NCBI GenBank assembly: GCA_016840035.1
Contig: JAEOTC010000220.1
Coordinates: 1 to 19,810, forward strand
DNA from: Candidatus Hodarchaeota archaeon
Lineage (GTDB): Archaea; Asgardarchaeota; Heimdallarchaeia; Hodarchaeales; Hodarchaeaceae
Length of the DNA: 19,810 nt
Direction: 5' to 3'
Below the pieces are notes generated by a model that was not told where the DNA came from, did no database searches, and was given only the letters and a program-made list of their open reading frames with translations. Below, piece after piece: positions 5,410-19,379 of this stretch (positions are counted from its first letter, which is position 1; each line of letters opens with the position of its first letter). The position numbers and the translations under genes were made by a program.

Positions 5410-7599
5410 TCATTCGGTTCTTGAGGTGAATGAACTTAATCCACGAAGAGTTAACTCTAATACTTTAGTCCGCCCTTTTTGATTCTCTCGAATATAACCA
5501 ATCGTCGTGAGCTGTTTGATTCGTTTTCTAGTAGTTGGCCTACTGATACCAAGTTGATTCGCAACCTGTGTATATGAAGGTTGAACTCCTTGACTATTAT
5601 TTGTATAAATAAATCTGATAATATCGAGTAAGTGTAATGGAATTTCAGCCAAAATTCTTGTTTCAACCATCTCAGTCTCTTTCTCTAATAGTGCTAGCTG
5701 GTGCGATGTTACCGTCTGTTCATCAAGCGAGAGTATAACGACCAGATTTAGGAATATGGCTATCTCTCTAGCCTTGTATATAAATTTGAGTGTTTCTTCA
5801 AATCCAAATTTCGCAATTAGAAAGTCTACTCGTTCTATCAAAGTAACACTTTTGGGAGGTAATGCTTTCATTCTAATTTCAATTTTATGAAATAACGAAT
5901 CATAATTATCACCCAACCCTGTTTCAGCTAACCAGATATATTCGTAAGATGCATCAAAAATTTCCCTATACTCATCTTCTGGGGTTCTAGACATAACTAA
6001 ACCTGAATATCCAATTCTTAGCAAATCTGCGAATACTTCACGTGAGAGAATCGGATCTGCCTCTTTAACCAGGTAAACCACCTGATCTTCAATTTTAAAT
6101 TTTAAAAGTTCTTGTTTCATCTTGTTTTCTAATGTCTTCGATTTAGTGACATCTCGCCAGATACTCCCAACCATATATCCAGATTGACTTTTAATAGGAA
6201 AAACATTGATTTGTACGTACTTCTGAGTGCCATCTCTTTGCATGATCTCGGTATCAATTGGCCTGGTAACCCACTCAGCACCCCCCACCATCAAGATATT
6301 CTTAAGACCATTAATGATGAGATTAAGAGACTCAGAATTTCGAAGATATTCAGGCATAAGACCATCATAAATCTCCCAGAAACTTGTACCAAAAGCTTGC
6401 TCATTTGATATACCAGTTAATTTTTCAATTGCTGCGTTCCATTCAACTATGCTCCCTTCTTCATCAATTAAGATTATTCCATCCCGAGAATAATCGATAA
6501 TACTTCGTGCTTTCTTTTCACTTTCTCGAATAGCAGATTCTACTTCTTTGAATTTAGTAACATCTGTGACAGAAACAAAAATTTTAGACAAAGAGTCCTC
6601 AAATCCAGGGACAACGAATATCTTAATGATTGTTTGAATTTTTTTCCCTGTGATTGTATACATCTCTCTTTCTCGTTCAATTACAGTTTCACCTTTAAGG
6701 AGATCAATAAAATCCTCACGAAAAGTAGCTAACTGGTCACCAAAAATTGAAATCTTATTCTGAAGAAGTTCCTCCTTACTCTTTGCCTCAAATAGTTCCA
6801 AAGTAGCAGTATTGACATTTGTTACTTTTGTACTCTCTGCAATTAGGTAGGGATTTTCTTCCAGATACTTACGAATATCTCTAATCCCTTCTTCTCTCAA
6901 CTTCATTACAAGCTTTTTCCCTTCGGAAAGATCGATTTCTCTCATAGATACAGGTGAATCTTCGAAGAGTCTTCTAAATCGGATTTCACTATCGATTAAG
7001 GCTTTTTCCGCATCTTTGATTATTGATATGTCAGTTATCGAAATTAATACCTTTGCTAACGTTTCTTCAAATCCCGGCACAACTAATGCCGTAAGAAGTA
7101 CATCTTTCTTTCTTCCCTTTAGGCTATATGCAACTGTCTCCTCTTCAAATCGTTTATTCCCTGATAAAAGCGCAAATAATAAGTTAGCAAAGCCAGAATG
7201 TTGGTCACTTCTAACCTGGGTGAACTTAGGTTGTTGGAAATCTTCTATCGTATCTGCTTCATATAAATCCAAAGCGGAACGATTTATGTTTACGAATTTA
7301 GCTTTACTCGTTAATTTATCTAACTCACCTGGATTACTTTCAATAAAATCATAAATATTGTAAATACTTGTCTTTTCCAGATGGTTACCGTATGTTTTTA
7401 CTTCAGAGAAGTCAACTTCGAGAAGAGCTGTCGGTGAATCTTGAAATAATCTTCTGAATTTCGCTTCACTAGTAACCAACTCTTCTTCGATCTTTTTCTT
7501 CTCTTTAATTTCCACTAATATTTCTTTTATTGTTTCCTTCATATCTTTTGGAATATCCTCTCTTTCCAAGAGATTTTCAAGATTCTTCATTTGGAACAT
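5410..7599 (-). CDS. One-component regulator: PAS-PAS-PAS + DUF835 (inactivated KaiC-like) + C-terminal winged HTH
   Basis: Three PAS entries (SEAKFRRLFQDSP, SEIRFRRLFEDSP, SEKKARSIIDYSRDGIILIDEEGSIVEWN) with DIS/DVT PAC ends. DUF835-type segment (VYLVKE...GYSGLVMSRT...YIWL...IERVDFLI..FGFEETLKF...LLEKE). wHTH (PSYTQVANQLGISRPTTRKRIKQLTTIGYI...GRTKVLELT). Confidence 0.85.
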   Translation of the reverse strand: MFQMKNLENLLEREDIPKDMKETIKEILVEIKEKKKIEEELVTSEAKFRRLFQDSPTALLEVDFSEVKTYGNHLEKTSIYNIYDFIESNPGELDKLTSKAKFVNINRSALDLYEADTIEDFQQPKFTQVRSDQHSGFANLLFALLSGNKRFEEETVAYSLKGRKKDVLLTALVVPGFEETLAKVLISITDISIIKDAEKALIDSEIRFRRLFEDSPVSMREIDLSEGKKLVMKLREEGIRDIRKYLEENPYLIAESTKVTNVNTATLELFEAKSKEELLQNKISIFGDQLATFREDFIDLLKGETVIEREREMYTITGKKIQTIIKIFVVPGFEDSLSKIFVSVTDVTKFKEVESAIRESEKKARSIIDYSRDGIILIDEEGSIVEWNAAIEKLTGISNEQAFGTSFWEIYDGLMPEYLRNSESLNLIINGLKNILMVGGAEWVTRPIDTEIMQRDGTQKYVQINVFPIKSQSGYMVGSIWRDVTKSKTLENKMKQELLKFKIEDQVVYLVKEADPILSREVFADLLRIGYSGLVMSRTPEDEYREIFDASYEYIWLAETGLGDNYDSLFHKIEIRMKALPPKSVTLIERVDFLIAKFGFEETLKFIYKAREIAIFLNLVVILSLDEQTVTSHQLALLEKETEMVETRILAEIPLHLLDIIRFIYTNNSQGVQPSYTQVANQLGISRPTTRKRIKQLTTIGYIRENQKGRTKVLELTLRGLSSFTSRTE

Positions 7600-7618
7600 A
7601 TTATAGTATTAGTTCATA

Positions 7619-7626
7619 GTTTAAAA
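7619..7626 (-). promoter_or_regulatory. Candidate TATA box for a leaderless or near-leaderless transcript of the PAS regulator
   Basis: Minus strand TTTTAAAC 20-27 bp upstream of ATG 7599; no RBS is visible before the ATG. Confidence 0.35.
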
Positions 7627-7671
7627 CCATTACAAATGAAGCTTCGGTATTAAGAAGAAAAGAAGAGATTT

Positions 7672-8217
7672 CTACTGGTATTTTATTCCCAATTCAATGG
7701 ATTTTGATTCTTTTTCCAGTAAACGCAAATATCGAGATTTTATGGCACTCGAATTCACTGAAATTAGTATAATTATTGATTTCAAATGTGCTATCTCACG
7801 TAGATTGTATACAAAATTAAGAGTATCTTCAAAACCATTTCTTGCGATTAGATTTTCCAATCTATCAACAAAAATGAAGTTACTTCCATCCAATCCGTTC
7901 ATTATTGACCCGAATGTCTTGTAGAACATTGAAGGTACAATATCCTGTGATATTCTATGTTCTTCTTGGAGGTCTACAAGTTCAGCAAATCTCTCTTTGA
8001 TATCTTCCTTTGTCTCTTTCGATATTATAATACCTTTATATCCCAAATATATCAATTCATTAAGAAGCAGGTAAGAAATAGTTGAACCTAGATCTGTCAC
8101 AAGATATAAATCTCCTGCTTTCAGGTTAAAATTCTTATATTGACAGATTTCCGGTTTTTTTTCAAGTTCAATTGGAGCTGAAGACTTAATTGATGTAAAA
8201 ATATAGGAGCTTTCCAT
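7672..8217 (-). CDS. Stand-alone DUF835 (inactivated KaiC/RecA-like) domain protein
   Basis: FNLKAGDLYLV...GYKGIIISK...FIFVDRLENLIARNGFEDTLNFVYNLREIA...LLEKE aligns by eye with the DUF835 segment of the neighbouring regulator. No Walker A. AGGTG RBS upstream. Confidence 0.8.
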   Translation of the reverse strand: MESSYIFTSIKSSAPIELEKKPEICQYKNFNLKAGDLYLVTDLGSTISYLLLNELIYLGYKGIIISKETKEDIKERFAELVDLQEEHRISQDIVPSMFYKTFGSIMNGLDGSNFIFVDRLENLIARNGFEDTLNFVYNLREIAHLKSIIILISVNSSAIKSRYLRLLEKESKSIELGIKYQ

Positions 8218-8374
8218 TCAGACACCTGGTAATAGAGACATAATCCTCTGTATGTAACAGATGTTCAAATATAAAATAAGGATAAGGAAAAAAATAGGGC
8301 AAAATACCAGAGAATATCTCCAAAAGTGAGAATTATTTCTCTTTCATATAGGGTTCAATGATTCGATTTGAAAA

Positions 8375-9430
8375 TTATTCATGGGCTAGACTAGTTAGCA
8401 AGTATTCGATAAAGGGACTATCTCGATTGAAAGCTTCAAAGTTTTCTTGAATAATGAATGATATTGGTTTCTTTTGTAGAATTCGTCCTTTAGGTATTCT
8501 TGGAATGCGATTTACAATAGCTAAAATCTTAGTATCTCCATTTGTTTTTAATCCATGTATCTGACGAATATACTGGGGTGTAAGATTTGACTTCATAACC
8601 AAAATATCATAGGAAACACTCTCAGTCCAGGTATCAATGCTATTTCGAAGACCATCAATCGTGGTACAAAGATAGGAATAAATCTCTCTTGATTGAAGAA
8701 TTTTACGCAAATTTTCGAATTGTTGTTCATTGTCACTGAGAACGAGGAGTTTCTTTTGTTCTTGTTTTAAAGCACTCGCTTTGAGGTCTTTCAACAATCG
8801 ATAAAGGACATCATGGAGCTTTCCCTCTAATATTTCATCTTGGATAACTGATGAAATGACCTCTTCTAAGCTAGAAATTTTTCTAATCGAACGTTTTAAA
8901 ACATCTGGAGTTGCATCGGAGAATAATTGCATACCTCTCCAGTACAATTCCTCAATTGGGATATTACCCTCCATCGCATTCATAAACAAATTTTGGAACT
9001 GCTCTCTTTGGATATCCTCAAGGAGGTCCTTATCAGTGAGAAAGCTGTTAATCTCACGTGTAAAGGAATTTGTTTCTAAAGACCAATCAAATAATAGATC
9101 TTCCATAGTACTAAGGTATTTATCGGAGAATTTTGTCCCAATAAACTGTAACATCAGTTTAACTGAAAAAGGTTGGAGTTTTTCTGTTCCACCAGCTAAT
9201 ATTGCAGCAACAATGATTTCTCCAATCGATTCAAAATACAATTCGTCATTTCCGAGCTTTAAATACTCAACCGATTGATTTTTTGAACTAAGAGTTTCTG
9301 CAAAGTTCGCTAGACCAGCTACAAGACCTGAAAATAATAAATCATCAATTTTATAATCCGAGAAGTCCGCATGATAGTGATAATGACACAATCCAATTTT
9401 GGAAATTATCCAGAGATTCTTGATTATCAT
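8375..9430 (-). CDS. Longin-like N-terminal domain + helical linker + C-terminal pseudo-receiver (CheY-like) domain
   Basis: N-terminus IKNLWIISKIGLCHY...DDLLFSGLVAGLANFAETL...VEYLKLGN has a longin pattern. C-terminus KKLLVLSDN...YDILVMK...KILAIVN...ISFIIQE has receiver beta/alpha periodicity. Start reassigned to ATG 9430 (AAGGT RBS, 34 bp after cheR stop) rather than 9547, which overlaps cheR by 83 bp. Confidence 0.7.
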   Translation of the reverse strand: MIIKNLWIISKIGLCHYHYHADFSDYKIDDLLFSGLVAGLANFAETLSSKNQSVEYLKLGNDELYFESIGEIIVAAILAGGTEKLQPFSVKLMLQFIGTKFSDKYLSTMEDLLFDWSLETNSFTREINSFLTDKDLLEDIQREQFQNLFMNAMEGNIPIEELYWRGMQLFSDATPDVLKRSIRKISSLEEVISSVIQDEILEGKLHDVLYRLLKDLKASALKQEQKKLLVLSDNEQQFENLRKILQSREIYSYLCTTIDGLRNSIDTWTESVSYDILVMKSNLTPQYIRQIHGLKTNGDTKILAIVNRIPRIPKGRILQKKPISFIIQENFEAFNRDSPFIEYLLTSLAHE

Positions 9431-9464
9431 TATTGCTGACCTTTCTTTGGATTTTTGTAGTAAA

Positions 9465-10661
9465 TTATATTGGTTTTTTCTTATATATACGATTACGGGT
9501 ATCGATAATCTCAAATTTGTGTTTAATTGATTGAGGTAATACCTCACATCTACCTAACACTAAGTATCCGTCAGGTTTCAACGCGGAGTAGAACTGCTTA
9601 AAGAATATTTCACTTTGTGGGCGTGAAAAGTAAATCAATACGTTTCGACATAGAATAATATCAAAATCACGTCCAGGTGGTGAAGTTCTAAGATCATGTT
9701 GCTTAAATGTCACCATATTCCTTATTCGTGAAGATAGTTGATAAAGATCAGAATCACTGATAGGAGAAAAATACTTGGTTATTTTCGAGTTGTCTAGTTC
9801 CTCCAAAGATTTATCAGAATATATTCCTTTAATTGCTTGTTGAAGTAATCCCTGATTGATATCAGTAGCAAGAATATATGGTTTTAAAAAAGTGGTTCTT
9901 GATCGTAATTCATCTAAGAGAATTGCAATGCTATAGGGTTCGGGACCGATTGCACACCCCGCGCTCCAGACACGGAAAGTATTCTTTCTATCAATGATCC
10001 GGGGAAAAATCTCTTTTCCTAAAACCATAAATAACTCGTGATCCCGAAAGAAACGAGTTACATTGATTGAAAAATTATCCATTAAGAGTTTAAATTCAGT
10101 AGAAGAATTTAATAATAAATTATAATAGCCTTTGTAGGTATTTTTATTTACACGTTTCATTCTAGCATGTAATCTTCGAAGAAAATGATTTTGTTTATAT
10201 GCTTGATAATTAATATCTCGACTCGATAATAAATCATATATTAAGGTCAAATTCTTCTCATCCGTCGGCGTGTTGAGACTAGATTCAAATTCTGGGGGAA
10301 GAACAACGAGAGGTTTCCTTTTTTTCTTTTTTGCAGTCGAAGGAGCTGTTGAAAAGTCTTTCAATGTCTTTTTCCGTCTTATTAGAGGAATAAATGTTTT
10401 ATCCTCTTCATGAATTGCCCTTCCTTTTTCTAGCCATTGCAGGACAGATTCGAAGAGTTTAGGATCGGTTTTAAGAGAGCTCAATAGTTCAGAATAACTC
10501 TTTAATCCCATCCTCCTAGTTTGAGATCTCAGTCGAAGAAGTATACGCTTTTCATCTTTTGAGGTAAATTCAAATTTTTTCTCTCGGAGGAATTCAATTA
10601 TTTCTCTTTTACCTCTATCTGATTCCAAATTAATTGAAAACTTGTCGTACGTAATTTGCAT
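9465..10661 (-). CDS. cheR: Chemotaxis protein-glutamate methyltransferase CheR with an extra N-terminal CheR_N-like domain
   Basis: INVTRFFRD, VWSAGCAIGPEPYSIA, ATDIN, HDL, FDIILCRNVLIYF and GYLVLG motifs. Confidence 0.95.
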   Translation of the reverse strand: MQITYDKFSINLESDRGKREIIEFLREKKFEFTSKDEKRILLRLRSQTRRMGLKSYSELLSSLKTDPKLFESVLQWLEKGRAIHEEDKTFIPLIRRKKTLKDFSTAPSTAKKKKRKPLVVLPPEFESSLNTPTDEKNLTLIYDLLSSRDINYQAYKQNHFLRRLHARMKRVNKNTYKGYYNLLLNSSTEFKLLMDNFSINVTRFFRDHELFMVLGKEIFPRIIDRKNTFRVWSAGCAIGPEPYSIAILLDELRSRTTFLKPYILATDINQGLLQQAIKGIYSDKSLEELDNSKITKYFSPISDSDLYQLSSRIRNMVTFKQHDLRTSPPGRDFDIILCRNVLIYFSRPQSEIFFKQFYSALKPDGYLVLGRCEVLPQSIKHKFEIIDTRNRIYKKKPI

Positions 10662-10693
10662 TGCTTCCTGACTTCATGGTTTAATTTACTCTG

Positions 10694-11272
10694 TTAGAGA
10701 ATAAGTGAAGTTCCACCTGTTGGTGTGACTATTAATTCATAATCTTTCACGATGAATTTCACATTCATACCCCGATCGCCCCCTGTAAACTCTTTCACTA
10801 GGGGGATACTATGCTTTTTCAAGTTAATTTTTGTGGCACGAACATTTTCTTTCCCAATGTCTAAGGTATCTGAAGATTTCCCAAACATCTTCGCTCCACC
10901 AACCATTTTTGCTTCATATGTCTTTGGTTGAAAACCAAGATTTCTTAATTTGTCTATCATACAGGGAATTGCTTTGTCCGAATATTTTGCAGGTAAAATT
11001 TTCTTTATTGGTTTTTTCTTCTGTTTTCTCTTATGGAATTCGGGTAACATAATATGTGCCATAATCGCACATCTACTTTCACCAAATAGATGCTTTGGAT
11101 ATATAACGAGGCCGACACACGATCCTAATGCAGGTATCTTTAGGTGATCTGTAGCATAACCAATGACAATCTGACTGATATCAACATAGACTGAATTAAA
11201 TCTCAAATCGTTCTTTGATTCGTCAGGAAGAGATAATTTCTTTGTCATTGAAACACATCTAGAGCTCAGCAT
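10694..11272 (-). CDS. cheD: Chemoreceptor glutamine deamidase CheD
   Basis: LGSCVG (catalytic Cys), AHIMLP (His), KYSD, AKMVGGAKMF, IGKENV, TGGDRG. Alternative start at ATG 11248. Confidence 0.95.
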   Translation of the reverse strand: MLSSRCVSMTKKLSLPDESKNDLRFNSVYVDISQIVIGYATDHLKIPALGSCVGLVIYPKHLFGESRCAIMAHIMLPEFHKRKQKKKPIKKILPAKYSDKAIPCMIDKLRNLGFQPKTYEAKMVGGAKMFGKSSDTLDIGKENVRATKINLKKHSIPLVKEFTGGDRGMNVKFIVKDYELIVTPTGGTSLIL

Positions 11273-14258: not shown

Positions 14259-16505
14259 TTATTTGGTTTTATTAGTAATTTTATCATTATTCGGAGATTT
14301 CAATATTTCTCCAGTTAAAGTTTTCTCTATAAACTCATTCTCAATTATAAAAACTGAAGATGAGTCCTTTTCATCAATGAATTGTTGCTGACAACATTTA
14401 ATTCCCTCTGAAAATATATCGATTCCCTCTAATGAATGAAAATCGCTTTTAAACGCCGTTATTACCGCTTCCAAGCTTTCTACGGGTATTTGGTAAGTTT
14501 CGTCCTCAATTTTAACTGTAAAGAAATCCACCTCTTCGTCATAGTTTGTTATTCCAGGTGTTTTCATCATCAAAGATTGAAGATCAATTACACAAATTTC
14601 CTCTTCACCTAAAGTGGCCTTCTTAATATGAGGAGGAAGATCAGCTCTTGACTTTTTAATCTTAACAGAAGAACTAAGAACGCTTTGAATAAATGATACA
14701 TCAATCGCCAGTTTATCTCCTCCCCATCGAAATACAAGGAAATCGCATCTATCCTCCTCACCATGAGACAGGAGATATAGTTCTCGTTCCTTGTGTTGAT
14801 CTTGAAGCTGTGCTAATGATTTTTCATCATCAGGATTTAGCTGAGATATCATTTCCTCAACATTATTAATACCAATATCTGATTTAAGAATGGAAAAAGT
14901 TTCTTCAAGTAAACGTGCTGGTTTCACTATAATACCCAAAGCTCCATTGAAGGAAAAAAATCCAGAAATCATTTGAGAGAGCATGGATGTGTAAAAACTA
15001 GTCTCAGGCTGAAAGATATCCAATTGATCTATTGAAACTCTTCCTAGTATTTTTTCAACGACAAAGGCTGCTTCTAAATCAGTTTTTTGATCATGTAGTA
15101 ATACTCCAGCCACCTTACTCGTTTCTGGAAATCCTAAACATGCACCCTGGACTAAATAATTAAAATCTACAAGAGGACTTAATTCACGATGAGTGGTAAC
15201 ACCCAGTATTGCCTCATGCGAATATTCACTTCTGAAGAATAAAACTTGATCCAGGATTTGCGTAATAAATTCAGAATCTATAAAAAATAAGTTTTCCTTG
15301 TTTTGAACCAATAGGCCTTCCTGAGCCCTGCTTTTAACCGACTCCGCAGTTACAGTCATAGGATTGTAAAAGGAAACTACTGGGTAATTTTCATCTTCAA
15401 GACTACCAGTATTGAAGTACATTCTGAAAATATAATTAATGTTTAAAACAAAGACAATATTCCCTGATTGCTCTAACATTACTCCCTGAAATATATAATT
15501 GTCGTTGATGCCTGTATTCAATACTAGTGTCTGCCTAATTTCACTTTTCTCGACTTCTACAATTCTGGGAATTTCATCCATCATGAAAGCAAGCTTTTCA
15601 CCAGCAAATTCCACAATTAAAGATTTTAATCCCGTGAATTTCTGATTGTCATTAATTTTCGTAGTTTGATCGGTGAAAAGTAGCGCGGTTAGATCTATTG
15701 CGTTTATTACTTCACCCTGATAATTAATAGCCCCAACAACAATGTTAGATGTATTTGGAATTTCAGTCAATTGTGAAATTGAATATATTCCCGACAAATT
15801 TTCATTTGGAATTAGGATTGATAAGTTTTGGACATTAACTATCGTCCCAGTAAATTTTTCCTCTTTAGCTGGACGGATAAATCTATCAGGTCTCCATCTT
15901 GAAACCTGAGTTGAATCTTGATTATGCTGTAATTCGATGTTAAATTCATCAAGTGGAACTTCCCCTCCGTTTTGATAGTTCTGAAAAGTAATTTCAATTT
16001 GTGAGTTTTTAAAATGCTTGTTTGAATCAATCATGATTTGATTAAAGATCATTTCAATGTTAAGCATTACGATTATGTTTTCTTCCCACATAAATGCTGA
16101 GTTAAAGAAAGATTCAGATTTCACTTTACTATTGATGAAGATTTCTTTTGTTACTGATTGGCCAGGCTTACTAATTATCCCAATAACATTATCAACGAGT
16201 AAGAATATTGACTGACCTCCATATTCTGCCACAAGAAAATTCTGTGTTTTCCTAGGATTGTCATTGAGTGAATCTAATCTCTCTCCGTAAAAATAGATGT
16301 TTAAGTCTATTGCAGGGAGAACTTCTCCTTGATAAGCTGTTGAACCTAATAAATAAGGAGGAGTATTAGCGGCTGGATTAATGAAGGCGTTTTGTATAAT
16401 TTGAGAAATATAGGTATTTTCAATCGCAAAGAATTTCTGATTAAGAGAAAAAATAACTAAACTTTCTTCATTATTTCTTCTCTTTATAGTACTTGCGATT
16501 GGCAT
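14259..16505 (-). CDS. cheW: Multi-domain CheW-like protein with four tandem CheW domains
   Basis: Four CheW-type repeats: LVIFSLNQKFFAI..PPYLLG..YQGEVLPAIDL; SILIP..IPNTSNIVVGAINYQGEVINAIDL; LFFIDSEFITQI..AILGVTTHRELSPLVDF; FLVFRWGGDKLAIDVSFIQSV..ICVIDL. ATG 16505 (GAGGTAGG RBS) is preferred to TTG 16544. Confidence 0.8.
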   Translation of the reverse strand: MPIASTIKRRNNEESLVIFSLNQKFFAIENTYISQIIQNAFINPAANTPPYLLGSTAYQGEVLPAIDLNIYFYGERLDSLNDNPRKTQNFLVAEYGGQSIFLLVDNVIGIISKPGQSVTKEIFINSKVKSESFFNSAFMWEENIIVMLNIEMIFNQIMIDSNKHFKNSQIEITFQNYQNGGEVPLDEFNIELQHNQDSTQVSRWRPDRFIRPAKEEKFTGTIVNVQNLSILIPNENLSGIYSISQLTEIPNTSNIVVGAINYQGEVINAIDLTALLFTDQTTKINDNQKFTGLKSLIVEFAGEKLAFMMDEIPRIVEVEKSEIRQTLVLNTGINDNYIFQGVMLEQSGNIVFVLNINYIFRMYFNTGSLEDENYPVVSFYNPMTVTAESVKSRAQEGLLVQNKENLFFIDSEFITQILDQVLFFRSEYSHEAILGVTTHRELSPLVDFNYLVQGACLGFPETSKVAGVLLHDQKTDLEAAFVVEKILGRVSIDQLDIFQPETSFYTSMLSQMISGFFSFNGALGIIVKPARLLEETFSILKSDIGINNVEEMISQLNPDDEKSLAQLQDQHKERELYLLSHGEEDRCDFLVFRWGGDKLAIDVSFIQSVLSSSVKIKKSRADLPPHIKKATLGEEEICVIDLQSLMMKTPGITNYDEEVDFFTVKIEDETYQIPVESLEAVITAFKSDFHSLEGIDIFSEGIKCCQQQFIDEKDSSSVFIIENEFIEKTLTGEILKSPNNDKITNKTK

Positions 16506-16574
16506 GGTTCCTACCTCAATTTCATTAAATGGTTCTCTATTCAAATCCTGATATGTTTAATTTTGCGGACATAT

Positions 16575-17186
16575 TTATTCCGAAAGATCCTCATCCTCGA
16601 TTATACTTTCCATAAAGTTATCTGAACTTTCATCTGGTAATGTGTACTGACTTAAGTCGAAATCCATGTCATCTGTATCTTCTTGTTCCCTCTTTGGAGT
16701 TTTAACAGATGTAAAGTAATTTCCTAACGCTTCTTCTGGATTTACAATCATGATTTCAGTTTGATCTTCAAGGACTCCAATTTGAGTTATGAGTGATTCA
16801 TCAACTAGAGTCTTTCCCTTGAAGTGTGATTCATTAGCACTAGATGTTTCCTTGATTTTTGAGATTTGATGAACCTGATCAACTAAAATTCCAACATCTT
16901 GTCCTTTTATTGAGATCACTAGAACGTTATTACTTTGATTAACCAATTTTCGCTCAATATCGAAGCCATTTCCCCATAAGAGATATAATAAATCAAACAC
17001 ACTTAGAATATAACCCCTGAGTTCTGTAATACCCGAAAGAACATTGGAAGTTTTTGGAAGTTTTAAAATTTTATCAGTCTGGAAAACTTCTTTTATATAA
17101 TCAACTTTAATCCCATAAACTTCCTTTACAATTTGAAATACAAGATATTTTTCTGGTGTATGAAGTGAAGAGTTCATGAATTTCAA
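16575..17186 (-). CDS. cheW: Coupling protein CheW with an acidic C-terminal tail
   Basis: YLVFQI..YGIKVDYIKEV, LPKTSNVLSGITELRGYILSVFDL, VGILVDQV. TTG start overlaps the upstream stop (TTGA); ATG 17177 is the alternative. Confidence 0.92.
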   Translation of the reverse strand: MKFMNSSLHTPEKYLVFQIVKEVYGIKVDYIKEVFQTDKILKLPKTSNVLSGITELRGYILSVFDLLYLLWGNGFDIERKLVNQSNNVLVISIKGQDVGILVDQVHQISKIKETSSANESHFKGKTLVDESLITQIGVLEDQTEIMIVNPEEALGNYFTSVKTPKREQEDTDDMDFDLSQYTLPDESSDNFMESIIEDEDLSE

Positions 17187-17911
17187 TCCTTTTTATTTGC
17201 GTTTAATATTTGCCGAAAATTTTTCATTACTTTATTGAATCTCGACGAAATCGGCTTATTGATCTCTTTTGTAGTTCCAGAGTATTCGGAACTAAGATAA
17301 GTGGAATCGGACTCCTCCATTGAGTCCAAACTTCTTTCAAGTTCTTGATCACCAATATAAGTTGTCGTAGTTTCCATCACAATATTATCAACTATACTGC
17401 CCAGTTGTGGAAATATTGAGGATTTTTTTTCCTCAAGGGCTTGATCTGTAAAATCGAAGCTTATCTCTACTACTAATCCAGATTCATAGGAGTGAAGGCT
17501 TACTAACATGAAGATTGTCTCAAATATTCTAGAAGCAAGATCATCAATCGATTCGATGAAGACTCGATTTGTTAAATAAGAGATTGGAAAATTTGTGACC
17601 GTGAGAAGGCAGACTAGATCACTTTGAGTGCGAACAAATATCCGTGATCCTTCCTGAACACCGATATCGTTTAATTCCATATTATTTCCGATCATCTCCC
17701 CAAATTGTACGATAGCAGCCATTAATCCAGCGATTAGTGCCGGATCCTCTCCTGGAGAGTTAGAGGTGCGTTTATAAACTCTAGAAAAAACAGGAAGTCC
17801 ACTTCGTTTATTTAATAACAAAATTTCGCGGACATTGAGGTTTATTTCCGCAAATTCGTTTTGTTTTTTGTCTCCATTGTTTAATTCTGGTTGAATAAAG
17901 ATTGGCAACAC
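17183..17911 (-). CDS. Longin-like domain protein with an acidic linker and a C-terminal basic amphipathic helix
   Basis: VREILLLNKRSGLPVFSRVY...EDPALIAGLMAAIVQFGEMI...LNDIGV...IFV....LVCLL matches the beta-beta-alpha-beta-beta-beta-alpha longin pattern (xxIxxxxSGxPxF / DxxLxxGLxxAIxxF). GTG/TTG start; exact start uncertain. Confidence 0.72.
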   Translation of the reverse strand: MLPIFIQPELNNGDKKQNEFAEINLNVREILLLNKRSGLPVFSRVYKRTSNSPGEDPALIAGLMAAIVQFGEMIGNNMELNDIGVQEGSRIFVRTQSDLVCLLTVTNFPISYLTNRVFIESIDDLASRIFETIFMLVSLHSYESGLVVEISFDFTDQALEEKKSSIFPQLGSIVDNIVMETTTTYIGDQELERSLDSMEESDSTYLSSEYSGTTKEINKPISSRFNKVMKNFRQILNANKKD

Positions 17912-18269: not shown

Positions 18270-19379
18270 TCAATTTTCGTATGTATAATCAATTAGGAGC
18301 TGAGGAATTTTGTGTAAAGGTGCCACATGATCAACAAGTTGCCCCTCAATAACTGCTTTTGGCATTCCATATATGACACAAGTCGATTCATGTTCTGCAA
18401 TTATCTTTCCATTGACTGCTTTTAACTTCTTGGCTCCATTATACCCATCTCTCCCCATTCCTGTAAGAATTATCCCAATGGTGTTATCTCCATATACATT
18501 AGCGGCAGATTTAAAAGTAACATCTGCTGATGGCATAAGAAAATTAACTTTCTGACCCTTGTAGATGTTAAATCTTTTTCCTCCTTCAATTGCACAGTGT
18601 AATCCACCAGGAGCGATATACACTTTATTAGGTCGAATAAGTTCGTTGTTTTCAGGAATTTTGATTGATAAGTATGAATATAACTTTTTTAGACGTTCTA
18701 CCCATTGTCCCACCATCTCTTCAGGCATATGTTGAATAATCACGATAGGTGGAAACTTGTACTTTGTTTTAGATAAAATCTCATTAATTTTGGTTAAAAT
18801 TAAAGAAATTGCTCTAGGTCCTCCTGTTGATGAAGCTATAATATAGATCCGATCTTGAAAGGTTTTTAGTCCTTTTTTCGGTTTTTTAACGACTTTAGGT
18901 TCCTCTTCCATAAAGGAATCGAAATCAAAGCTTTTTATTGCTCGCGTGAGATTTATCTGAGAGAGACTCTGAATTTTGGTGACTAATTCTCGTTGAAACC
19001 TCTTATCATCAATAGAATCATCGTGAGAAGGTTTTTTTACAAATTCTACTACACCTGATTCGAAAGCTGCCATTCCCAAGTTCTCAAGTGATTTATCAAC
19101 GTCTTTTTGACTTAAAGAAGAAACAATCACAACAGGTAATGGGAATCTATCCATAATATGTCCAATAGTCTCGTATCCATCCATTTCTGGCATCATAATA
19201 TCCATGGTAACAATATCTGATTTATATTTTTGAAGACTCATCTTCTGTAATGCGATATTTCCATTAGGAGCGGTACCAATGACTTTAATACGTTTTCCGC
19301 CTTTAGTTAGAATTTCTTTAATTTTGTGGCGATATACGGCTGAATCATCCACAATAAACACTCTAACTTCATCAGACAT
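18270..19379 (-). CDS. cheB: Chemotaxis response-regulator methylesterase CheB
   Basis: Receiver (VFIVDDS, DIVTMDIMMPEMDG, VSS, KKP) plus esterase triad motifs ASSTGGP, IQHMP, ILTGMGRDG and VIYGMP. Confidence 0.97.
   Translation of the reverse strand: MSDEVRVFIVDDSAVYRHKIKEILTKGGKRIKVIGTAPNGNIALQKMSLQKYKSDIVTMDIMMPEMDGYETIGHIMDRFPLPVVIVSSLSQKDVDKSLENLGMAAFESGVVEFVKKPSHDDSIDDKRFQRELVTKIQSLSQINLTRAIKSFDFDSFMEEEPKVVKKPKKGLKTFQDRIYIIASSTGGPRAISLILTKINEILSKTKYKFPPIVIIQHMPEEMVGQWVERLKKLYSYLSIKIPENNELIRPNKVYIAPGGLHCAIEGGKRFNIYKGQKVNFLMPSADVTFKSAANVYGDNTIGIILTGMGRDGYNGAKKLKAVNGKIIAEHESTCVIYGMPKAVIEGQLVDHVAPLHKIPQLLIDYTYEN

Follow-up and report, generated by a model that had tools for sequence, protein, structure and literature searches.

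The locus described here raises the question of what a protein that carries a eukaryote-type fold and a two-component fold in one chain may do beside the chemotaxis genes of an archaeon. The window (the whole stretch of 19,810 nucleotides that was analysed) is a chemosensory gene cluster of a Hodarchaeales archaeon (Heimdallarchaeia, Asgard) with all listed genes on the minus strand, and the gene in question, which encodes protein P0002 and is present in a single copy in its own genome, stands directly after cheR. Asgard archaea are the archaeal group closest to eukaryotes, and longin and roadblock domains serve eukaryotes as modules of membrane traffic and GTPase control. Taking together the folds predicted for P0002, its missing catalytic residues, its genomic contexts and the counts of co-occurrence, we infer, tentatively, that P0002 could be an adaptor that serves the output of the Che pathway independently of phosphorylation. 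Longin adaptors and pseudo-receivers are both known kinds of protein; P0002 combines the two.

The limits of the gene were set with the help of its homologues. The longest open reading frame over the gene opens at GTG 9547 and overlaps the end of cheR; since each homologue (45 of 45) starts at the Met equivalent to ATG 9430 (MIIKNLWI...), the gene was placed at 8375-9430 on the minus strand, with a product of 351 amino acids. The gene and the three parts of its product are as follows.

8375-9430, minus strand: gene of P0002, 351 amino acids plus stop, with the start codon ATG at 9430; translation and start shared by homologues
9032-9430, minus strand: predicted longin domain, residues 1-133 (AlphaFold2 model, VIA-align, Foldseek and Atlas matches)
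8762-9031, minus strand: predicted helical module of four helices, residues 134-223 (AlphaFold2 model, conservation)
8378-8761, minus strand: predicted pseudo-receiver, residues 224-351 (model, VIA-align Z 10-10.9, weak colinear hhalign alignment)

This three-part layout holds in an AlphaFold2 model built on a 29-sequence alignment, with a mean predicted local distance difference test score (pLDDT) of 79 and a predicted template modelling score (pTM) of 0.47; at this pTM the domains are credible and their mutual arrangement is unreliable. In residues 1-133 of the model DSSP assigned strands 3-10, 15-20, 57-59, 62-69 and 72-79 and helices 30-48, 87-109 and 117-132, which is the longin order of elements (strand-strand-helix-strand-strand-strand-helix, with a further helix) without a helix before strand 1. 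A structure search with VIA-align against 48,161 solved chains matched this part to the longins of CPLANE, VAMP7, Sec22, TRAPP and AP sigma/mu at Z 11-12, with 113-129 aligned residues and a root-mean-square deviation (rmsd) of 2.9-3.6. The best match was CPLANE 7q3d_C (Z 12.0, 129 aligned residues, rmsd 3.6), and the synaptobrevin-like longin 2dmw (Z 11.7), TRAPP 7b6d_C (Z 11.6) and VAMP7 2vx8 (Z 11.4) were also matched. For the N-terminal domain Foldseek returned TRAPP and, with E about 5e-4, MglB, Asgard roadblock proteins and Mon1-Ccz1. P0002 differs from MglB and the roadblock proteins in the missing N-terminal helix, as its strand 1 starts at residue 3, and in its longin order of elements. 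Both the structure search of the ESM Atlas and the feature search of residues 1-225 led to Asgard stand-alone longin clusters, the closest cluster bearing a Pfam family being an Asgard one that is partly Fuz_longin_1.

At the sequence level the domain is silent: none of 29 family members matched a longin or roadblock Pfam profile at E <= 1, and nothing relevant was found when the P0002 sequence was compared with the sequences of solved structures. The domain thus shares its predicted fold and order of elements with eukaryotic and Asgard longins (TRAPPC1/4, Sec22/VAMP7, AP sigma/mu, the first longin of Fuzzy/Mon1/HPS1), and it is set apart from them by the lack of a longin Pfam match, by the fusion to a receiver-like domain and by the link to che genes, the last two traits not being reported for them in the papers searched.

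Helices span residues 117 to 222 of the model. The helical module carries a nearly invariant EDIKREQFQNLF helix and Trp164, the best-conserved motif outside the longin domain in the 29-member alignment. It gave no informative fold match, VIA-align returning only a designed helical protein. Weak Pfam matches were dismissed as chance or too weak, namely WNK CCTL2, which hit 35 residues of the helical module in 11 of 29 members (best E 3.5e-06), and DUF2709 and PDE8A_N (E 0.0034, in one member).

The C-terminal part of the model consists of strand 227-231, helix 235-246, strand 251-255, helix 258-267, strand 274-279, helix 285-292, strand 302-306, strand 323-327 and helix 339-349. This predicted structure is a receiver-type five-stranded parallel sheet with helices 1, 2, 3 and 5; helix 4 is absent, and a loop (residues 307-322) stands in its place. 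Its VIA-align matches were almost only response-regulator receivers (Z 10-10.9, 104-116 aligned residues, rmsd 2.5-3.4), with 2qxy_B at the top (Z 10.9, 111 aligned residues, rmsd 2.8), and with 3snk_A (Z 10.8), FixJ 1d5w (Z 10.7) and 2hqr_B (Z 10.6) among the others. The PF00072 receiver profile did not match any of the 29 family members even at E <= 1, and a profile of the C-terminal domain searched against PDB sequences found no receiver and nothing else of relevance. An hhalign comparison with 13 real receivers was colinear over 115 columns but weak (E 0.0064, probability 5.9%). Since receiver homology escapes the sequence methods, "receiver" is a fold-level statement derived from a predicted model, and it is at this level only that the domain is a receiver. 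A relationship of residues 220-351 to the DUF835 proteins encoded nearby was also considered and rejected (hhalign E 0.35 over 14 columns).

The sequence-only reading of this DNA had proposed a longin-like N-terminal domain of about 130 residues, a helical linker and a C-terminal part with the element order of a receiver, i.e. a eukaryote-type trafficking fold and a two-component fold in one chain. The first two proposals are borne out by the model, by its order of elements and by the Z scores against solved longins, and the combination agrees with the matches of both domains to solved structures, as far as a predicted model goes. The segments named there (KKLLVLSDN, QQFENLRKIL, IYSYLC, YDILVMK, KILAIVN and ISFIIQE) each coincide with the matching element of the model, and the receiver-like order stood in its strands and helices as named, but not in helix 4, which is not predicted. 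Alignment to receiver profiles, recommended at the same time, bore the idea out in the colinearity of the hhalign alignment and not in its probability or in a PF00072 match.

The positions that would serve phosphorylation were then compared among the orthologues. In the hhalign alignment Lys280 falls on the phospho-accepting Asp position and Asp233-Asn234 on the acidic pair, and P0002 has Asn307 at the Thr/Ser position after strand 4 and Gln328 at the Lys position after strand 5.

8591-8593, minus strand: codon of Lys280, at the phospho-accepting Asp position (hhalign, column counts)

The sequence-only reading had noted Lys in place of the phospho-accepting Asp and the loss of the Thr/Ser and Lys residues, and all three substitutions are confirmed by these alignments and column counts. 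Whether homologues retain the Asp has a mixed answer: it is kept in 15 of 29 orthologues and replaced in the others (Q 3, H 3, S 2, N 2, E 2, K 1, G 1), Lys being seen in P0002 alone. Even close relatives differ freely here (K, Q, H, S, D). At the Lys position 26/29 have Gln, at the Thr position 20/29 have Asn, and the acidic pair after strand 1 is likewise not maintained, as its first position (233) is Lys or Arg in 18/29. Because the Asp, Thr, Lys and first acidic positions vary or are replaced among the orthologues, the phosphorylation machinery is not under selection, and the name pseudo-receiver, given in the sequence-only reading, is right. It is supported by these comparisons that the C-terminal domain would be unable to accept a phosphoryl group in the usual way, as had been proposed. 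The alternative, an atypical but functional response regulator in which the Asp-bearing orthologues are still phosphorylated and Lys280 is a recent loss, could call upon the 15 orthologues with Asp and upon relatives in which a canonical receiver is fused to the same longin-helical module; in view of the Gln, Asn and basic residues at the other positions, and of the free variation of the Asp position itself, we consider it very improbable.

A nearly invariant feature of the C-terminal domain lies elsewhere, in the loop that replaces helix 4.

8483-8506, minus strand: loop I-P-R-x-P-[RK]-G-R, residues 309-316, where receiver helix 4 would sit (nearly invariant; predicted loop)

Ile309, Pro310, Pro313, Gly315 and Arg316 are each identical in 28/29 orthologues, and the loop is not conserved in the distant branch of the family. 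Receivers commonly contact their partners through the alpha4-beta5-alpha5 face. This bears on a second alternative, according to which the pseudo-receiver mimics CheY and docks on the P2 domain of CheA, on CheC/CheD or on phosphorylated CheY, so that P0002 would serve as a tether or decoy within the core pathway and not as an adaptor at its output. The fold is receiver-like and resembles CheY-type receivers, the gene lies near cheR, cheD, cheC and cheA in the window, and the CheA encoded there carries a P2 domain. Against such mimicry, helix 4 is swapped for the Pro/Arg loop on the very face that receivers commonly use for partners, and the gene persists in genomes where CheA was not found; we regard it as improbable.

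Loss of the phospho-acceptor chemistry with retention of the receiver fold is known from HP1043 (PDB 2hqr), which P0002 resembles in this respect. KaiA and CikA pseudo-receivers and FrzS are further pseudo- or phosphorylation-independent receivers. P0002 is distinguished from the known pseudo-receivers by the nearly invariant Pro/Arg loop in place of helix 4 and by its longin fusion partner, and no sequence relationship to them is detectable.

A longin domain, an alpha/beta domain and a helical region are also combined in eukaryotic GTPase regulators of the DENN, folliculin and SMCR8 type, and folliculin/SMCR8-type longins have been described in Asgard archaea, specifically in Heimdallarchaeia (PMC12290439). 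That P0002 would be an archaeal forerunner of these regulators is nevertheless hardly to be believed: the order of domains differs, as in P0002 the helical part precedes the alpha/beta part, and the best matches of residues 224-351 are receivers, DENN and folliculin cores not being among the VIA-align matches listed for this segment. The Gly-Pro motif of the folliculin/SMCR8 class in the loop between strands 1 and 2 (PMC12290439) is absent as well; after the invariant Gly13 all 29 orthologues have Leu, Ile, Met or Thr.

The family is narrowly distributed. A word-indexed search gave 45 homologous proteins and an exhaustive HMMER search of 1.84 billion representatives also gave 45, with source labels of Hodarchaeales, Hodarchaeota, Heimdallarchaeota or Promethearchaeota. 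In a survey of 400 Asgard species genomes, proteins with the full-length architecture were confined to a single genus-level group of Hodarchaeales (13 of its 22 genomes); the rest of the 400 had no full-length member, and only the longin part found matches there. More distant relatives (P0046-P0057, P0062, P0065) are 22-36% identical and have the same three-part layout. A scan of the genome collection returned only the orthologous group, and a pattern scan of metagenome contigs of the Joint Genome Institute (JGI) for this distant branch found nothing.

In P0058, P0059 and P0071 the order is different: the chain opens with a canonical receiver (PF00072, E 1e-18 to 1e-20) that retains Asp and Lys; behind it come the longin and helical parts, and of the C-terminal domain a mere stub is left. 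As a phosphorylatable receiver stands here in one chain with the longin-helical module, the sequences of these relatives suggest that the module may be their output domain. Two loci with such relatives were read (L012 10001-11581 and L013 101-1651); the proteins have 516-526 amino acids, the canonical receiver and a linker of ~120 residues precede the longin-helical module, and the C-terminal domain is reduced to its first strand-helix-strand. Histidine kinase genes lie near the L013 copy. In another genome, otherwise without the gene and CheA, a 62-residue remnant matching residues 290-351 and containing an in-frame TAA (G064:C13:90594-90779) is probably a decayed copy of the family, judged from its sequence.

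The strength of the link to chemotaxis was assessed from the gene neighbourhoods. In the window the genes are arranged as follows.

9465-10661, minus strand: cheR, immediate upstream neighbour of the P0002 gene (PF01739, E 3.4e-52)
9431-9464, minus strand: gap of 34 nucleotides between the cheR stop and the start codon of the P0002 gene, seen in the sequence, with similar gap sizes at related che-adjacent loci
17183-17911, minus strand: gene of P0091, 242 amino acids, between cheB and cheW; longin fold by model
18270-19379, minus strand: cheB
Order up to the gene, minus strand: cheB, the gene of the 242-residue P0091, cheW, a multi-CheW protein, cheY, cheA, cheC, cheD, cheR, P0002
Order after the gene, minus strand: a DUF835 protein, a PAS-DUF835-helix-turn-helix (HTH) protein, two methyl-accepting chemotaxis protein (MCP) genes, two aconitase-family subunits

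A scan of the window found no terminator-like site within 7500-10800, and comparison of nine loci brought no conserved promoter motif to light in front of the gene. In the window and in six related loci (L004, L005, L006, L007, L028 and L032) the gene comes after cheR, co-directional with it and separated from it by a short gap. Moreover, the gene of the ~35% identical relative P0048 lies inside the che operon of another order (cheA-cheC-cheR-[P0048]-cheW-cheD-cheB), and the Che proteins of this operon are only 31-38% identical to those of the window, so this is a second, distant association with che genes. A 385-residue gene product without a Pfam family is encoded after cheB in the same operon (L022 7006-8163). 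Within the genus CheA is present in 10/13 genomes with the P0002 gene versus 2/9 without it, with a one-sided Fisher p of 0.017 that is overstated, because the genomes are related and not independent.

The second longin-fold protein of the window has a closer tie to the pathway. P0091 gave no Pfam match; its model (core pLDDT about 70-80, overall 59) predicts a longin fold, with VIA-align matches to synbindin (Z 14.5) and sedlin (Z 13.1), and at its C-terminal end the protein has a STYLxSEYSGTTxEI motif of very high conservation and a basic amphipathic helix. Members of the P0091 family occur in 11 of the 12 CheA-positive genomes of the genus and in none of the 10 CheA-negative ones, and the gene lies a few kb from cheA wherever both are on contigs long enough to tell. 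In another clade (L008, L018, L019) the P0002 orthologue stands directly downstream of a P0091 homologue (40% identity, E 2e-53). P0091 is likely a functional companion of P0002, and it is a stronger che-specific candidate than P0002 itself. Close paralogy of the two proteins was rejected, as only the first helix aligns (22 columns, probability 16%). Complex prediction for the whole of P0002 with a P0091-family protein gave an interaction prediction score from aligned errors (ipSAE) of 0.01 in both runs, which were made without control pairs, so that the score counts neither for nor against binding. The genome has a second che cluster on contig C12 (L056, L016), with cheB, a P0091 paralogue, cheW, a multi-CheW gene and a cheA that is 71% identical to the cheA of the window; this 8.4-kb contig breaks just after cheA.

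Several observations weigh against a role at the Che output. The che-adjacent orthologues form one clade (support 100/99), so the adjacency within the genus may be one inherited rearrangement and not the result of repeated selection. In G059, a single contig of 4.9 Mb, the P0002 gene lies ~200 kb from cheA; G067 (=G001), G068 and G069 carry the two genes on different contigs, and the che operon of G001 stops at cheR, with a convergent cheB. In L001, L003 and L009 the gene is surrounded by genes for peptidase, acetyltransferase and Lhr helicase. The gene is also carried by three genomes (87%, 91% and 80% complete) in which neither CheA nor a P0091 homologue was found; conversely, the gene is missing in two CheA-positive genomes. 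To these are added the derivation of the receiver homology from predicted structure only and the unreliable placement of the domains relative to each other at pTM 0.47. The chemotaxis context, seen in the sequence-only reading as the position directly downstream of cheR, stands for the window and one clade and does not extend to other species of the genus, in which the gene is found elsewhere, or to the three genomes without a detected CheA. The available evidence partly supports the link, which we take to be real but partial.

The same observations could be read in favour of a general longin scaffold, e.g. an Asgard small-GTPase platform or a trafficking-type adaptor, with no specific chemotaxis role and with the cheR adjacency as inherited synteny of one clade. 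The dispersed position of the gene in several species of the genus, the three genomes mentioned and the single clade of che-adjacent genes all fit such a scaffold. So does the resemblance of the N-terminal part to Asgard stand-alone longin/roadblock proteins and to the longins of eukaryotic guanine nucleotide exchange factors and adaptors, the more so as longin and roadblock dimers are treated as GTPase platforms in published work (PMC10933270). It accounts less well for the P0048 gene embedded in the che operon of an unrelated order, for the second clade, where the neighbour of the gene encodes a homologue of P0091, the che-bound longin, and for the co-occurrence with CheA, and no small-GTPase gene was adjacent to the P0002 gene in any locus read. 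A general scaffold is the main alternative to our reading, which we nonetheless consider doubtful as an explanation of P0002 and find less likely than an adaptor at the Che output.

An adaptor at the Che output would meet a pathway whose usual archaeal output was not detected. Neither CheF (PF04283) nor archaellin (PF01917) was matched in the 22 genomes of the genus, of which one is a single contig with an estimated completeness of 96%, another is estimated to be 99% complete and 12 have CheA; control genomes were matched by both profiles, and divergent archaellins could escape PF01917. PF04283 did not match P0002 or its own genome either. Asgard archaea are known to possess che genes and chemoreceptor arrays (27/97 metagenome-assembled genomes), with no output defined for them (PMC9834061). 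For cultured Hodarchaeales, which now exist according to work cited in PMC13705601, type-IV-filament-like structures have been reported, and CheF is present in only some Asgard genomes (PMC13705601). The proposed place of P0002 would be the logical place of CheF, the archaeal adaptor between CheY and the archaellum, from which it differs by the missing PF04283 match and by its predicted fold.

According to the reading that we favour, P0002 would be a cytoplasmic signalling adaptor, restricted to one Hodarchaeales genus, which may act at the Che output without being phosphorylated and together with the che-embedded P0091. The longin domain and the helical part might constitute the effector module that binds a downstream target, and the pseudo-receiver, with its nearly invariant Pro/Arg loop in place of helix 4, might provide a docking or regulatory surface.

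The nearest functional analogy to such an adaptor is offered by the PatA-type PATAN-REC regulators (PatA, PixG, PixE, PilG-like) of bacterial chemotaxis-like systems. In these the N-terminal domain serves as the output and binds to the motor of the pilus, and some of them work without being phosphorylated (10.1101/2021.06.11.447907). P0002 is built along similar lines, by prediction, with an N-terminal protein-binding alpha/beta domain and helical hairpins followed by a C-terminal receiver fold. PatA-type genes are often found in che-like operons, and the P0002 gene after cheR in the window and six loci, together with the distant relative in another che operon, recalls this arrangement, which is not family-wide. 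In contrast to the PatA type, the N-terminus of P0002 is of the Asgard/eukaryote longin type in the structure search and in the feature search of residues 1-225, the receiver lacks the catalytic residues and the host is an archaeon. Membership in the PatA type was rejected, because PATAN (PF14332) gave no match in the 29 members or in the whole genome, with control genomes matched, and because the N-terminal domain groups with Asgard longins.

A further analogy leads to a bolder proposal. In Myxococcus xanthus the Che-type Frz pathway signals via receiver-domain proteins to a regulator of the roadblock/longin superfamily, with MglA/MglB/RomR as the polarity module (PMC6785124, PMC13408092). 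By analogy with Frz-MglA/MglB, the Che pathway of this lineage might signal via a pair of longin proteins, the P0091 family and P0002, with a small GTPase, the cytoskeleton or a surface-filament machine under their control, so that a prokaryotic sensory pathway would be wired into a eukaryote-type polarity/trafficking module. The N-terminal domain of P0002 has MglB among its Foldseek matches; unlike in the Frz system, receiver-like and longin-like parts are united in one chain, and small-GTPase genes were not seen next to the P0002 gene in the loci read. We think this wiring rather unlikely.

Some features of the neighbouring genes deserve mention on their own. In the 398-residue CheR the CheR_N match begins only at residue 148, which leaves ~145 N-terminal residues unexplained, and the length of 398 residues is preserved at related loci. 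The multi-CheW gene (14259-16544, minus strand) encodes a 761-residue protein built only of CheW domains, with three stretches above threshold, and a related genome has a 1145-residue version with five CheW stretches (L015 15102-18539, minus strand). The stand-alone DUF835 gene and the PAS-DUF835-HTH gene after the P0002 gene (5410-8217, minus strand) are found likewise in L004, L005, L006 and L032 and are missing in L007 and L028, where MCP or aconitase genes come directly after the P0002 gene; the pair is a separable module.

In full-text searches of the literature neither a fusion of longin and receiver nor a che-linked longin protein was found described for Asgard archaea; reported from this group are longins fused to GTPases and to TRAPPC3/V4R domains (PMC10933270). 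The family described here gives one of the Asgard longin and roadblock proteins a readable context by its receiver-type fusion, its receiver-fused relatives and its repeated ties to che genes. As cultured Hodarchaeales exist, according to work cited in PMC13705601, the idea is open to experiment. If the link to chemotaxis is true, P0002 and P0091 would be concrete candidates for the output that is missing from Asgard chemotaxis systems, and they would show a way in which proto-eukaryotic regulators could have become coupled to two-component signalling.

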